In this document: in pieces, positions 8,811-63,411 of the stretch | How the letters are laid out: each line of letters opens with the position of its first letter | How positions within the stretch are numbered: position 1 is the first letter of the stretch | DNA from: Lytechinus pictus | Taxonomy: Eukaryota | Assembly (NCBI RefSeq): GCF_037042905.1 | Contig: NC_087251.1 | Location: 34,350,001 to 34,414,000 of the forward strand | Direction of reading: 5' to 3' | Length of the DNA stretch: 64,000 nt | Translations under genes and position numbers: made by a program | The notes under the pieces: model-generated | Told to the model about the DNA's origin: nothing | The model's database searches: none | The model's input: the letters and a program-made list of their open reading frames with translations, nothing else

Positions 8811-11800
8811 CGCACCCTTAAACACACACAAACACGCCCACAAATACTTCATATTGCTGAGAAAGGCTGCAGTCAGTACCCGAAAATTTCGAGGTAACTC
8901 TTGAAGATCAATTTTTTTCCCGGTGCGTTGAGAGCAAAAGCTTGAATCAATATTTATTTTCAACCAACACAGATGAACTTTCATGATACTCATCTGAAAA
9001 CAAATGGTGGTGGTGATTTTTTTTCACTCGCCAGGTGCGGCATCAGGTTATGGGGAGGGAGCAACTAAACTTTTACTTTCTAAATTGAATTAAAGTTGTA
9101 ATACATTATAGTTACAAGACATAAACTCACTTTTGTTCTTATAGTGTCTTCTCTCTTCCTTTTCTTTAACTTTTCTTCCTATTCATTTATACTTGAAAAA
9201 TCAAAGCGCGACCGCCCCCTGTCGGTTATACGCCGTCCCTGTCACTCTTGTAAACTTATGTTCGATAATTTGTAAAAAATAAAATTGCTAATTTTATTTT
9301 GATTGTAATCCTTTATGTTTGGATTTGAAATCAATAAAAATAAACTTGTAACTTGTAAACATTATTGATGTAATACTTACCTCATGTTTCCTGTGCCCTC
9401 TTTATCAAAGACTTTGAATACATCGGCAAGGTCATTTCCCTCATCTTCGTGTCTTATCTTCGACATAATGAGGAGAAAATCTGTGAAGTCAATCCATCGG
9501 CCACGCTCTATAGTTAGACAAGAACAAAAGAGAAGATAAACTTGTAATTGATACCCACTATGCACTATGCAAACCTGCATGTTATGCACATGCATGTTAA
9601 CTGCCATATTGTAATGATGGTGTGTTATATTTTAATGTTTTCTCTTTAATATGCCATCTTTTTGTTCTCACACAATGTATTTATACATGTTAGATATCTG
9701 TGTATTTTCATACCCCGAAAGGGGTCGACAGAAATCTGCAAATATAGTTCAAGTTCAAGTTAAAAAAGTTCACTATACAGTTAGGCAAGAAAATAAGGGA
9801 TAATTTGATTCATGCTATATTTAGGCAAGAGAAAAGGGTAACTTGTAATTGCTGCGGTACGGTATTGATAGAGGGCTGACCATGCAAAAGACACAATTTT
9901 ACGTTTTTTGAACATGTTTATTGCAAAAAAAGTGGTGGAGTTGCAGCACCCCCCCCCCCCTCCCCTGTCCCTGACTACTAATGGCAATTCGAAGTAAAAG
10001 TCGTCTTTTCATCCAATCAGATGTACGGATTTCAGTAGCTTATTACAATGATTCATTTCATGAAAGCTAGGCTCTCCTTATTTAGTTCTTACCGAAACCA
10101 TTGGCGTCGTGTAGATCATTGATTATGTCATTCATCTTGGATTCGGAAGGATTTTCCCCAACTGAACGGAGTAAGAACCCAGTCTTCTTGAACGATACCA
10201 AACCATTCTCCTCCCTGTCCAGAAGCTGGAAAGCATTCTTGAAAGCTACAATATCAGAAAGGGTAAATTAATAAAGCATTTTGAAACAAATGCTCAGTAA
10301 AATTTTGCAAACACATCATCAACTTTTACAATCATATCCAGTGAAAAGTACTAAGTGACGTTCTCATCCAACATATATCTGAATACGAGGACAGAAATTG
10401 ACATGTACACTTTAAAAAAACACTAGAGGTTTTTAGAGGGGGAGTTCACCATGAAGAAAAGCTTGTAGTAAAACAATAGTAGAAAAAATGATAAAAATAT
10501 TGGTGAAGGTTTGAGGAAAATCCATTAAAGATTAAGGAAGTTATTAGAATCTAAATTTTGGATTTGTGACGTCATAAACGAGCAACTGCCCTATAATTAT
10601 GTTACGTAATGTAAAATGCATAAATTTCAATATTTTAATGGTTCGTAATGAATTGTTTTTTGTTTGCTTTTTAGGAACGGGTGTGAAATAATTTGTTTAT
10701 TGATATACTAAATGTACAATAAACATCATTTTCAATTTCATGAGAAAATAACATCTCATTGATTTTTTTTTACCATTCAACATAGGAAAGCTGCTCGCAT
10801 ATGACGTCACAAATCAAATAGTTTAATATCTAACAGCTTTTTTATTCTTTGATGGATTTTTATCAAATCTTCGGCACCATTTTTTTATTATTTTTACAAT
10901 AAACTTTTTTTTTTAGTACGGGTGAATTTAAGGTGAAAATGTTGTGTGTCGTATGGGACTCAGAAATGTCCCGTACGACACGCAACATGTTTGGACAGCA
11001 GTTTAAAAAGTGTTGTGAAAATGGCTCTTTTTTCTAGCATAGAATCGCCCATCTACAAAATTCTGGATAGATAACATTCACTAGGCAATGCAGAAGCGTA
11101 AGCCGTTTCTGATTTTAAATTAAATGGCCCGTATTCTGAAGTCGGGTTTAATTTAAACTCTGGTTTAAAGTTGTAGTTTAACTATGGATAGCCAATAATG
11201 GCATAAATATCTAACCGTAGAATTTCAATGTATCAGCTCATTTTTCTCTCGAATCATTCTTCACTGTTTCGGAAGGATAAATAAGATAGCTTTCTTCACC
11301 ATTTACGAGTTAGATATAGTAAATATAAGAAACATACTCTATGTAAGGAAAATTTTGACATTTTTTGGTTTTCCATAATTTTAGCACAGAGTTAGACCAT
11401 GGTCTAAGTTAAACCTGACTTCAGAATACGGGCCAATGAGTTTAAGCTGTTAACAAAGTTTTGGAGCAATGTGTTCTGTATGTTTGTTTGATTAATTGTT
11501 ATTCAAAAGAATTATTTACATTACGAAGCATGGTGTAAAAAGGGTGCGACTATTTTTATTTATTTAAGATCATGCATGAAAAACTTACAAAAGAGACATC
11601 AAAGAAAAACTACTAGCGGAAAAAAAACCAACAGATACATCTACAGCTGGATTACCCCGTCATTTAATGCTGCTTAACTTCGAATGCAATATATTTTAAT
11701 AATACAGATGGAGAATAAAGGTGAAAGGTGTACAATAACAATATAAAAATGAAAAGAAACAAATCATGACATAAAAACACGAAAGAGATGCAGGAGCGGG

Positions 11801-30876: not shown

Positions 30877-49052
<18,176 letters not shown>

Positions 49053-57480: not shown

Positions 57481-59211
57481 GTTGCCATTCTGCGCCTTTC
57501 TACAAGAATTGAAAATCAATGTGCTGTAGTTAGAATTAATATAGTGAGAGTTAATTACCAACAAGAATATGCAATTGATTGCAAAAATTTTTGTGTCAAC
57601 TCCTTTTTTATGTCTTTGTGAAAATCCCTTTGATCTTTATCATAAAGATGTTGGTAAAGATATGGTAAACTGTACAAATGGCAGGGTTATGGTAAGCCAA
57701 ATGTAGTTCTTTACATTACACCATCAGTTTATATCCAAATATGCAGGCTAAATATTATTATTAGTAATATTAAGAAGCATTTTCAATACAAATCATATTT
57801 TTGACTGGGTCTCCTTGAAAATGTTAAAAATATAATTATAATTTAGTTTTAAACATATGGGAGCTTGATGTTCCTGATTTGGCACTTCATACTCCTATCA
57901 GTTGTTCATTAAATTGTTTGTAATATCCTGCATAACTTTGTAACCAACTTTATGAAACACCTTCCCAGGTTATAAAGATGTTTGTACATATAGATTATAC
58001 TCATTTTGCGAAACAGTAAGTATCGTCTGTTCAGAGCCAAAAGGGTGTTTAGTCTGTGTGTGAACATCCTTCTTCAACAATGTTTTAGCATTTCTTGTAC
58101 ATGTCCTATTTGTTTCCTAACATATTGATTTTGATATATTGCAAAAAAAAAATTGTACAGTATCTTTTGTGTATTTTATTATGAAGAAAAAACATTAAAA
58201 AACAAGGCAGGTGACCAAACAATATAGACGAGTTTTTGGTTGTTTAATATCCACTAGATTGTTGTTTATGATTGTTGTGAACTGTGGCAAGATAAATGCC
58301 CGGATAAATGCAAAATAAAGAGGCTGGTGTAAGTGAAATAGTGAATAAAGATATGATTTATATGGGCATTGAAGAGGCAAGTACAATATGTCAAAATGGA
58401 GACCTTTATAAGAGAAAAGACTAAAGATATGTACATGCATGCTCAATTTAATAATCTTTTAATAGTAAAAGCAACTTCAACAAGTTTGACAGGAAATGAA
58501 ATGAAATTTAGAATTTAGAACCTACATTCTTGAAGTAGACTGAAGACTTGATAGAGAAATTTAGGAATTATTGAAAGTTAATGATCATAAATACACTAAT
58601 TTGTTTGATATCGGTGATTAGTGAGTTCAAATCACAACACTTAACCATGCATGGGCCAGCAGTTGTTACTTAAATTTCCTGTTGAACATTAATTTTCTCA
58701 TTCCTTGAATATTCAACTTTGATCCCTAAGTACTATGATGATCATTTGGAATACAATGTTTAAGGTTGAATGTTTGGTCTGGAAATATATATTTTTTAAT
58801 GAAGATAAGGTGAAACTTCAGGGGTTCATTTAATAAAAGTTACATCCATTGTAACTTTGTCATTATGGAGACTACCATGCATGTAACATGGCTCAGCCAA
58901 TCACAATCTAGGATTCTGTGGTAGTTGCAATGATGGCCAGGTTACAGTAGTTTAAAGTATTTATGGAACGGTCCCAGGGCAGTGTGGAGTGGTCCATTTC
59001 ACCTGAGCAAAATGTAACTCATCACACCATAATCCCTCTAAAAGCAATATCAACTTTAACTAGCTGTGTTACATCTCACCCCCTTCCCTTTGTTAATGAT
59101 CAGATGAATCTTATTAAAAAAAAATATTTAAAAAAACATGAAAATGGTGATGACAAGGTTTAAGTTACATTATTTTGCATTACTGATCTGCACGTTAGTA
59201 TACTAGTAGGC

Positions 59212-60666
59212 CTATTCTGGTATTTCTATGCTCGATGTTGTTTTCTGGTGGGAATCCGGCGATGATCCGTTGTATGATGTCGCCGCGGTGGGAGCGTGGT
59301 CGAGCGGGGTCTTGTCCTCTTCGCCTTCTCCATCGTCACCTACTGCCCACATGATACACTTTAAAGGTAGCTTTATGAGTGAGAGTAATAAGTCGAGGAT
59401 GTACTCAAGACAAGGCGCACAGCAGGGACAACAGATCTTCACTGCGTGGGGACAAAAGAAAATAATAAACAAGAGGAGAGGTGGAGAAAAAGAAAGAAGA
59501 GGATGAGGAAAAGAAGGAGAAAGAAAGTAGGAGGAGAAGGAGGAGAAAGAGAAGAAGAAAAAAATTAAGAAGAAGAAGATGGAGGAGGAGGAGAAGACGA
59601 AGAAGAAGGAGGAGAAGAAGAAGGAAAAGAAAAAGAAGGAGAAGGAGAAGAAGAAGAAGAAGATGAAGAAGAAGATGGAGGAGGAGGAGAAGACGAAGAA
59701 GAAGGAGGAGGAGAAGACGAAGAAGAAGGAGGAGGAGAAGAAGAAAAAGAAGGAGAAGAAGAAGATGGACGAGGAGGAGAAGACGAAGAAGAAGGAGGAG
59801 GAGGAGAAGAAGAAGAAGAAGGAGGAGGAGAAGACGAAGAAGAAGGAGGAGAAGAAGGAGGAGAAGAAGAAGGAGGAGGAGAAGACGAAGAAGAAGGAGA
59901 AGGAGAAGAAGAAAAAGAAGGAGGATAAGAAGAAGAAGAAGTAGAAGAAGATGGAGGAGGAGGAGAAGACGAAGAAGGAGGAGGAGGAGAAGGAGGAAGA
60001 GAAGACGAAGAAGAAGGAGGAGGAGGAGAAGAAGAAGAAAAAGAAGAAGGAGGAGAAGAAGAAGAAGAAGAAGAAGATGGACGAGGAGGAGAAGACGAAG
60101 AAGACGGAGGAGGAGAAGAAGAAGAAGTAGAAGAAGAAAGAGGAGGAGGAGGAGAAGAAGAAGAAGGAGGAGGAGAAGACGAAGAAGAAGGAAGAGGAGG
60201 AGAAGAAGAAGAAGAAGAAAGATGAAGGTGAAAATGAAGATGAAGGAGCAGGAGGAAAAAATGTAGATAAATCGATGAAGGCATGCGCAATACCGAATTG
60301 TCGAGAAGAGATCATAATTATCGTTACTTTGTATAATTCATGATTATCTGGTTTATTCTCATTATTCCTATAAATGAATAATTTTCTCTTCTCTCGCTCG
60401 ATCGCTGCGCACACTCAAACTTTCATTCAAGATATTAGGCCAATGACCATTTTCAAGCCAGGTGCTGTACTATCCCAAGTTTTATTAATAATGACTGTAC
60501 TTGAATTAGAATAGTAAAAAGGTATTTTATATTTACGTGGGCAACATATGATGCCAAGTACAATCCCCAGAAGACTGAGTGCAAGTAGCAGAGGTAGGCA
60601 GATGATCACAAGAATCACCTTCAAGATGACCTTGAAACAGACCACGAGACCCTCTCCACAGGACAT
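59212..60666 (-). CDS. Small Cys-rich hydrophobic/membrane protein, 119 aa, TAXIMIN-like motif
   Basis: Exons 60537-60666 (donor C|GTAAAT) and 59212-59441 (acceptor CGCAG) join in frame: MSCGEGLVVCFKVILKVILVIICLPLLLALSLLGIVLGIICCPLKICCPCCAPCLEYILDLLLSLIKLPLKCIMWAVGDDGEGEEDKTPLDHAPTAATSYNGSSPDSHQKTTSSIEIPE*. An acceptor (TTCAG) sits 3 nt before the ATG, and a candidate upstream non-coding exon ends at 61324 (AAAG|GTAAGG). Confidence 0.8.
59470..60260. repeat. ~790-bp (GAA/GGA)n polypurine tract in the intron of the Cys-rich gene
   Basis: Seen directly; it includes a recurring unit GATGGAGGAGGAGGAGAAGACGAAGAAG. Confidence 0.95.
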
Positions 60667-62379
60667 TTTCTGAATCCTCAGAATCGAAATATAAATAATT
60701 GGTGTTTAATTATAAGCAGTAATGTGATGACCAACAAGTTTTAGGGGCAGAATATGGCGTATGGGCAAAAAAAAAAAAAATATAATTGAAATCTAAATCT
60801 TTTATAAAATGTTTACCTATTTACATATCACTGTATGAAGCCAATACATAATATAATAATAATATAGGGTATTTATATTGCGCACATATCCACCTTGTTA
60901 GGTGCTCAAGGCGCTCCTATATTACCCGGCTAAGCTAGGCGTTCATGAAACCATGAAACATGAAACATAAAACCATAATATGTTTGAAATACGTATATAT
61001 TATACATTTTTATCAGAATAGTGGTAAATAGCGAACAAATAACGAGTTATTTTAACTTTAAACAATAAATTGTCGTTTTATCGTATATCATAAATTAGTT
61101 GTTTTTTTAACACTCTTTGGTTTTATATTCAAACTCTAATTTTAAAAAATGATGTCAGTTAACACCTCAGTTTTACTCTTTAATTAAACGAAACCATACG
61201 AGGTCGGTAAGCAGTTGAATGTTTATCACAATAGCACTCAACTTTCTATTATTTCTAATATTATTGTTTAATATAATGAAAAGAACAAGCGATCGCGTAA
61301 CGTTTCAATCAAAATTACCTTACCTTTGTTGCCTTTGTGTAGAGTATGTGCCTTCAATTCAAAGGGAAATTGAATCCATGAAAATAAATGAACGAAATGT
61401 CTTAAAATTCTGCACTTCAGCAATTAGAGATTAAACGAAAGCAGCTATTTCCCCAATAGATGGATCCTGCATATGAATTATGCGGGCCGGATTATTAACA
61501 ATACAGGCATCAGCTCCATATGTCCCTACTTTTATTTCATCCCCATGGCCTCTCTCTCCCCCTCTCCCTCTTCTCCTCCCTCCCCTCTCTCTCTCTCTCC
61601 CTCCCCCCTCTCCCATTCCTTTCCCTTTCTCTATATTTCCTCGCTGTCTCTCGTACCCTTCACCTTTCTTTATTAATCACCCTTCTTGTATAATATCTTC
61701 CCCTTTTTTCTTAATCAGAAATCTTGAATGATGGTGGGGGGGGGGTGTAAATCACCACCATTGATCAGTTTACGATCAAACTTGTTTCCCATCATGATAT
61801 AGTGCAATTTGCACAATTAATGTGGTCTTTATGTTATTATAATTTATTCATAATTTTGATCCCTTGTTAAGTTGGTGATACTTTTCTTCTCCCCCATTTT
61901 AGAGCACAGTGTATCACCCTTTAATGTAATGTGACCCTACTTGTTTCTAGCTTATTAATGTCCTGGCGTCTACTCGGTTTCCTTACAACCAACTGTTGGT
62001 TATGATGAGCGCTTCCCCTCAGACCCGCGTTGATTATTATTAATTAGTTTAATTATTTTTTTTAAGTATTAGGCGTATCGATTAAAAAACAAACATTTGG
62101 CAGTCCCATCAAACTCATCTCTGACGAGACAAAGAGCGGCATCCGATTGCATTGATGGGCGACTTCTCCTGAAAAGATAGTCTGCCCCCTCTCGGTAGCA
62201 GACAACACAACTGTTCTGTTCTTTATTCACTTTTATAATTGACCAACGGTACGCGACAATGTCCCCCGCGATCTTCTTATAAATTGCAAGTTTGCAATGC
62301 AGATTAGATAACTGATGGAAATACGTGATTTACTGAATTGGGTTCACTTGAAATTGCATGGATTTGAAGTAAATCCAGC

Positions 62380-63281: not shown

Positions 63282-63411
63282 AGGCGCTATAGCTCTGTGG
63301 GGGGGGGGGGGTTCAGATTCAGGTGACCCAGGCTCGATTTCCACTTGGTGCGCTAGTGCCCTTTGGTAAGGCATTAATCCTCGGTCCCTTGGAGAGGACT
63401 TTAAACCGTCG
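63282..63411 (+). mobile_element. Decayed tRNA-derived SINE (Nin/Deu-domain-like), truncated by a Transib-like insertion
   Basis: GGCGCTATAGCTC head, then CCTTTGGTAAGGCATT and GGTCCCTTGGAGAGGACTTTAAACCGTCG. Confidence 0.55.

Follow-up and report, generated by a model that had tools for sequence, protein, structure and literature searches.

The window (the whole 64,000-nt stretch of Lytechinus pictus DNA analyzed here) carries on its minus strand a spliced gene for a small, Cys-rich protein that resembles the plant peptide TAXIMIN. The features of this gene and its surroundings are listed in Table 1. The neighbors, a poly(A) polymerase gene and an EF-hand gene, add nothing on its function.

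Table 1. Features of the TAXIMIN-like gene and its surroundings; positions are counted from the first nucleotide of the window.
Feature	Position	Strand	Description
Open frame	1766-2014	minus	Signal-peptide-like hydrophobic stretch, then a Lys-Arg pair; no Pfam match; possibly exon 1 of a secreted precursor
EF-hand calmodulin-like exon	10085-10267	minus	Under the curated cut-off
Poly(A) polymerase exons	32889-42980 and beyond	plus	Tail to tail with the TAXIMIN-like gene
First AATAAA past the stop codon	58180		
3' UTR	at least 58771-59211	minus	One X1 contig spans 59441-58771
Coding exon 2	59441-59212	minus	230 nt including stop; Lys45, Cys cluster 47-54 (C-C-P-C-C..C), amphipathic helix, K-x-P-x5-W (67-75), acidic tail 79-119
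Simple repeat	~59484-60259		Inside the coding intron
Coding intron	60536-59442	minus	1095 nt; GT..AG, phase 1 in codon 44
Coding exon 1	60666-60537	minus	130 nt; ATG at 60666; residues 1-43 and first base of codon 44; Cys3, Cys10, Lys12, Lys16, then nearly the whole 28-residue uncharged run, Pro25 and Pro43 included
5' UTR part of coding exon 1	60667-60676	minus	Joint in X5 contig; AG at 60678-60677
Short interspersed repeats	60853-60946; 63306-63382		Very high read and contig depth; the second with tRNA-like loose ends
5' UTR intron	61323-60677	minus	647 nt; GT..AG; joint in one X5 (organism B) contig only
Upstream non-coding exon, 3' end	61324-61380	minus	Contains an in-frame stop
Upstream open reading frame	61379-61359	minus	Six codons within the 5' UTR exon; shares the frame of the main ATG

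The spliced translation is 119 aa long, contains 11 Cys and ends in an acidic Ser/Thr/Pro tail, and the frame 5' of the ATG is closed by an in-frame stop. The window was compared with four sequencing runs, two of contigs and two of raw reads. The junction 59441/60537 was present in one contig each of the contig runs X1 (organism A) and X5 (organism B), both of which we presumed, as a guess, to be RNA; in the raw reads of X17 and X18, of which about 6 in 100 were examined, depth was zero in the bins inside the coding exons. A second comparison with four contig runs listed no splice joint, and two of the four had no match at all; there, the differences of organism B were confined to the tail, and the 10 changes classed comprised 6 silent and 4 residue-changing ones, a number too small for dN/dS. 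The long open frames that run through the coding intron are spurious, because a simple repeat lies there. We conclude that this is a real, spliced gene. An earlier note on this DNA had proposed the two-exon, 119-aa product from the letters alone; its exon coordinates were exact, and the junction it named is spliced in contigs of two runs.

AlphaFold2, supplied with a 58-row alignment, predicted two helices, at residues 5-47 and 49-78, joined by a turn at the Cys cluster; the tail came out as disordered, and the pLDDT of this hairpin was 86-92 over residues 11-70. Its second helix has an amphipathic character, with a moment of 0.54 in the urchin protein. The uncharged run is exactly 28 residues long in 6 of 7 animal rows and in two of the four algal fusion proteins described below. 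In animals, Lys closes it on the C-side and Lys/Arg stand on the N-side; in animal rows and algal fusions alike, its two ends carry basic residues and usually Cys. There are 5-8 Cys in animals (8 within residues 41-78 of the urchin protein) and 3-6 in alga-like rows, often an odd number, and their spacing and register vary. The length of sequence ahead of the run also varies, with 46 residues in the sea cucumber and 73 in the nemertean. A fold search with VIA-align against 48,161 chains returned only generic helical hairpins (best Z 8.7, rmsd 1.9, 79 aligned), the structure search of the ESM Atlas returned nothing with a name, and a PDB sequence search with the family profile gave a single weak match (E 0.077).

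A search of the 812-Mb genome with the urchin protein (P0001) found the gene in single copy; two possible paralogues, L003 and L004, scored 5 bits or less and were dropped. By word search, LOC121417967 of L. variegatus is 91% identical across exon 2, and LOC115929489 of S. purpuratus is 68% identical over residues 1-80. Conservation against S. purpuratus lies in the core (46 of 62 residues identical at 17-78), with only 16 of 41 in the tail. Among 1.84 billion representatives, phmmer gave 25 matches at E up to 0.001, 20 of which were looked up by name. They comprised two urchins, four named animals (Asterias, Apostichopus, the annelid Dimorphilus and the nemertean Tubulanus), two proteins in clusters with named green-algal proteins, 16 others that had no name or were outside the 20 looked up, all of them motif-bearing, and one repetitive protein (P0005), which was similar to the tail only and was discarded. 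No land-plant TAXIMIN was among these 25 direct matches. Relatives therefore span two other urchins, a sea star, a sea cucumber, an annelid and a nemertean, and the orthologues on which the earlier note had made its proposal depend do exist.

Five fragmentary relatives (P0007, P0010, P0011, P0020, P0022) begin to be similar at the column of Lys45, where urchin exon 2 starts, which suggests the same intron site in their source organisms. An ESM Atlas cluster of 82 aa, with 139 members, mostly Arthropoda, scored 0.84 against residues 1-79 and may be an arthropod branch of the family.

TAXIMIN is reportedly called 'plant-specific' in the title of Onrubia 2014, and our literature search, which covered few subscription journals, found no report of non-plant members. 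The plant proteins (Taxus TbTAX, Arabidopsis TAX1 At2g31090 and TAX2 At2g20562; Pfam PF28483) and the urchin protein have in common a hydrophobic segment with Pro, S-x-x-G, C-P-C-C..C and K-x-P-x5-W, in the same order and at near-identical spacing: from the Cys cluster to K-x-P-x5-W, animals and plants differ by one residue only. The urchin core is identical to plant P0072 at 21 of 62 residues. P25, P49, C50, C54, P69 and W75 are kept in all six named animals and all six plants compared, and urchin C48, C50, C51, C54, P49 and P69 align with plant residues. The differences are also clear. The urchin protein has 119 aa against 72-81 aa in plants, and it ends in a 41-residue acidic tail where plant TAXIMIN has a terminal Pro-Cys. 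It has P-x-K before the cluster, which plant TAXIMINs lack; its Pro25-Ser31 stretch is three residues shorter; and its second helix, unlike the plant one, has charged residues.

In the ESM Atlas, TAXIMIN clusters ranked first, with scores of 0.84 for the whole protein and 0.88, with 180 shared features, for residues 1-79, both below that tool's bar of 0.9; only three of the ten best family matches agreed. A profile built from 18 cores, animal and alga-like, matched 44 proteins at E up to 10. Two of these (E 4.3e-6 and 2.4e-4) are plant proteins that carry PF28483, and one of the two bears the name 'Signaling peptide TAXIMIN 2'. Precomputed PF28483 (TAXIMIN), in a table whose threshold is not given, is carried by 16 of the 44, including the annelid protein P0004, and is absent on the urchin proteins P0001 and P0002. 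An animal-only HMM (7 rows) scored the plant TAXIMINs P0069, P0070 and P0072 at 37.3, 33.5 and 41.8 bits. None of 2000 shuffles matched these scores at any of four levels, including shuffles within five-residue windows, which leave the hydrophobic profile intact and the Cys cluster in place, and the reversed plant sequences scored 0-2 bits.

Because these three plant proteins had been selected by a profile that contained animals, an independent set was fetched with a plant-only query. It gave 47 loci, among them three without the TAXIMIN family (L057-L059), and 28 good two-exon models, 14 of them distinct; 18 loci had no two-exon model. The animal-only HMM scored 13 of the 14 models at 32-41 bits and the other, which we take to be TAX1-like by its second helix, at 19 bits. 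For the four models submitted to the shuffle test, at most one of 1000 shuffles scored as high. In the opposite direction, a plant-only HMM, built from a narrow set with an effective sequence number under 1, scored the urchin protein at 14.9 bits as a whole and at 17.1 bits over residues 1-80, a score reached by one of 2000 five-residue-window shuffles. Profile-profile comparison by hhalign gave 97.0% for animal and plant (E 1.1e-10, 58 columns), 97.1% for alga and plant and 99.4% for animal and alga, and none of 40 column shuffles scored as high in these group comparisons.

Other families of similar character were also considered. CYSTM, PLAC8/cornifelin and caveolin are Cys-rich or hairpin membrane proteins, and the urchin protein is likewise small, hydrophobic, Cys-rich and, by prediction, membrane-bound. 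Pfam scans gave no CYSTM or PLAC8 match, either with P0001 at E up to 10 or with the 18 core rows at E up to 1, in both cases with HMMER filters that remove most matches above E 0.1; Pfam on the exon pieces and P0001 gave only TMEM192, at E 2.1. Kinship with caveolin (PF01146) was rejected: a caveolin profile, made of six pieces from the same genome, gave hhalign values of 0.07% with the animal, 0.37% with the alga and 3.7% with the plant profile, and 29 of 40 shuffles reached the animal score. The genome itself has eight caveolin matches (L005-L012) in about six genes on contigs C1, C2, C3 and C11, three of them clustered on C1.

Hydrophobic, Cys-rich hairpins can look alike by composition, and the animal family might owe its likeness to plant TAXIMIN to convergence. 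The null2 bias corrections were large (12-29 bits), the plant-only HMM gave three echinoderm rows only 1-7 bits, the intron differs in site and phase, and the fold is generic. Against convergence stand the scores above those of the five-residue-window shuffles, the near-zero scores of reversed sequences, the spacing that agrees to within one residue and the PF28483 assignments, the annelid included; caveolin, another Cys-bearing membrane hairpin, stayed at chance against the animal profile. We regard convergence as very improbable. These results suggest that the animal family is very probably homologous to plant TAXIMIN; the likeness proposed in the earlier note held up in composition-corrected profile tests, with no better match to CYSTM or PLAC8.

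The urchin protein is probably a divergent homologue rather than a member by the strict features of the plant family. According to the parts of PMC4526920 used here, plant TAXIMIN has a precursor of 73-75 aa with a C-terminal mature part of equal length (46 aa), six conserved Cys and three conserved Pro, and two coding exons with one intron. In the urchin protein, 84 residues, acidic tail included, follow the site equivalent to the plant cleavage site. At column 46 it has Ile in place of the plant Cys, and it lacks the terminal Pro-Cys; the identity of the six plant Cys was taken from the alignment and not from the figure of PMC4526920.

In a tree of 42 rows and 74 columns, the 17 plant rows formed one clade on a long branch (100/100), and the animal rows fell outside both this clade and the alga-like group; animal monophyly was neither shown nor rejected (77/35). 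The tree is unrooted and poorly resolved, and most of its 'alga' labels were assigned by similarity to four named genomes. The urchin and plant genes each have two coding exons. In all 28 plant models the intron interrupts the gene in phase 2, 19 nt ahead of the Cys of C-P-C-C, whereas that of the urchin is a phase 1 intron 11 nt ahead of this Cys, so that the plant site lies 8 nt further upstream. An intron common to both was thus not found, which leaves common descent neither favored nor excluded. A recent transfer from plants is unlikely, given the different intron site and the place of the animal rows outside the plant clade. Since the family occurs in deuterostomes and lophotrochozoans, it would be at least as old as Bilateria. 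Animals have P-x-K in common with alga-like rows and the C-P-C-C..C register in common with land plants, as an old three-way split would give. The earlier note had offered ancient patchy retention or horizontal transfer as origins; a recent plant source is disfavored, and the data fit ancient retention and ancient transfer equally.

The closest non-animal profile to the animal one is the alga-like profile, which aligned to it without gaps over 67 columns. In all four full-length algal proteins (P0031 of Chlorella vulgaris, P0076 and P0102 of Coccomyxa and the JGI Chrzof1 model P0028), the TAXIMIN-like module is fused behind a BRO1 domain that scored over its cut-off, and it lies 450-530 residues in from the N-terminus. 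The urchin protein is free-standing, where only the phmmer search would have covered longer forms. The two have in common Pro25, P-x-K and a final Pro with Trp/Tyr; the algal cluster is mostly C-C-P, with fewer Cys than in the urchin. Because it lies C-terminal to BRO1, the algal module cannot be a signal peptide. Our literature search found no paper on a BRO1-TAXIMIN-like fusion. The nearest parallel is human BROX, which, in the parts of PMC3230590 used here, is one Bro1 domain followed by a C-terminal CAAX lipid (farnesyl) anchor; Bro1 domains are cytosolic and bind CHMP4 (PMC3230590). BROX and the algal fusion each have a single Bro1 domain and then a Cys-based C-terminal element, prenylated in BROX and putatively an acylated hairpin in the alga. 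This is an analogy, and we claim no sequence relation between BROX and the urchin protein. By this analogy, the algal module occupies the place of a membrane anchor.

The position of the algal module, the varying Cys and a large residue at the plant cleavage position lead us, on balance, to favor a Cys-rich helical hairpin, fatty-acylated and anchored from the cytosolic side, over a secreted peptide as the likely form of the urchin protein. The 28-residue uncharged run (17-44) would dip into the bilayer, Cys on both of its flanks would be S-acylated, the amphipathic second helix would lie on the membrane surface and the acidic tail would face the cytosol. With less support, the membrane may be the plasma membrane or an endosome, where the protein might act as a small tether or organizer, as suggested by the algal fusion to a domain of a type that binds ESCRT-III. 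For the animal protein, the ESCRT link would be indirect, because the fusion was seen in green algae only. Variation in the number and register of the Cys appears to fit S-acylation better than a fixed disulfide frame.

A homologue that acts as the plant papers propose would instead have an N-terminal signal or signal-anchor and an extracellular, disulfide-bonded, Cys-rich C-terminal part, perhaps released as a ligand. The C-P-C-C..C register common to animals and land plants and the even number of Cys at urchin residues 41-78 agree with such a protein. The position -1 at the predicted plant cleavage site, which we set 46 residues ahead of the plant C-terminus, is Ala in 6/6 plants, in contrast to Ile, Val or Leu in 6/6 animals (Ile in the urchin). 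Signal peptides follow a small-residue rule at -1, which Ile breaks. The long stretches ahead of the run in the sea cucumber, nemertean and algal proteins and the often odd Cys counts in algae also speak against an extracellular form.

The plant data themselves can be read in two ways. In the sections of PMC4526920 used here, TAX1-Venus is at the cell membrane and needs the N-terminal hydrophobic part, the overexpression effects depend on that part, and the signal peptide is an in-silico prediction. Secretion is the authors' reading of the localization, tax double mutants look normal and without phenotype, and these sections show neither a processed peptide nor a receptor (PMC4526920). A review passage cites TAXIMIN as a plant secreted Cys-rich peptide (PMC11012589). 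The localization of TAX1 and the normal double mutants would fit an anchor as well as secretion. We consider an extracellular urchin protein quite unlikely. The earlier note had named a palmitoylated membrane hairpin and a secreted peptide as possible forms; on the reading given above, the former is favored and the latter disfavored.

A single-pass microprotein is a further alternative, with its N-terminus outside or lumenal, one kinked helix across the membrane and, on the cytosolic side, the acidic tail and a palmitoylated Cys cluster. Directly after the run come Lys45 and the Cys cluster, and a Lys and a Cys cluster just past a hydrophobic run are the usual layout for juxtamembrane palmitoylation; the tail is acidic and poorly conserved, as this topology would allow. 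Against it, basic residues and Cys stand at both ends of the run, and the BRO1 domain of the algal fusions must be cytosolic according to the parts of PMC3230590 used here, so that the topology cannot apply to every member of the family. We find it unlikely for the urchin protein. The opposite single-pass arrangement, with the Cys cluster outside, should also be named, since 28 residues can cross a bilayer once. The hairpin anchored from the cytosolic side is the reading that we retain.

A wider proposal can be built on this anchor. TAXIMIN might be an ancient eukaryotic S-acylated hairpin anchor that recruits or organizes BRO1/ESCRT-III, rather than a plant hormone, and that has been kept in bilaterian animals, green algae and land plants; the algal fusion would then be a BROX-like adaptor in which the hairpin replaces the prenyl anchor, and the plant overexpression effects would reflect disturbed membrane traffic. 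Taken jointly, we hold these statements to be doubtful. The animal and algal homologues change the age of TAXIMIN, and they define a membrane microprotein family of invertebrates that has no name, for the study of which sea urchin embryos are suited. If the animal and algal forms are indeed anchors, they would question how plant TAXIMIN works, and determination of topology and acylation is a cheap and direct test of this different mechanism. The gain is tempered by the fact that PF28483 already marks an annelid protein in a precomputed table, and the function given here is a prediction.

Several smaller observations concern the plant proteins and the tail. TAX1 and TAX2 are absent from two supplementary files of an Arabidopsis S-acylation proteome (PMC12236689), which is no evidence either way, as tiny hydrophobic proteins are easily missed. 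Three plant models (L047, L021, L033) have acidic or Cys-rich N-termini ahead of the hydrophobic part, which is unusual for signal peptides. A Y-G-S/T/A motif, for the Y-G-S/T form of which our literature search found no paper, occurs in the acidic tails of P0003, P0004, P0012, P0015, P0007, P0011 and P0022, where an acidic stretch and a Pro/Glu-Leu pair often precede it. It is absent from P0006 and P0010, and the urchins have Y-N/D-G-S (59215-59330). This tail motif may be a sorting signal.
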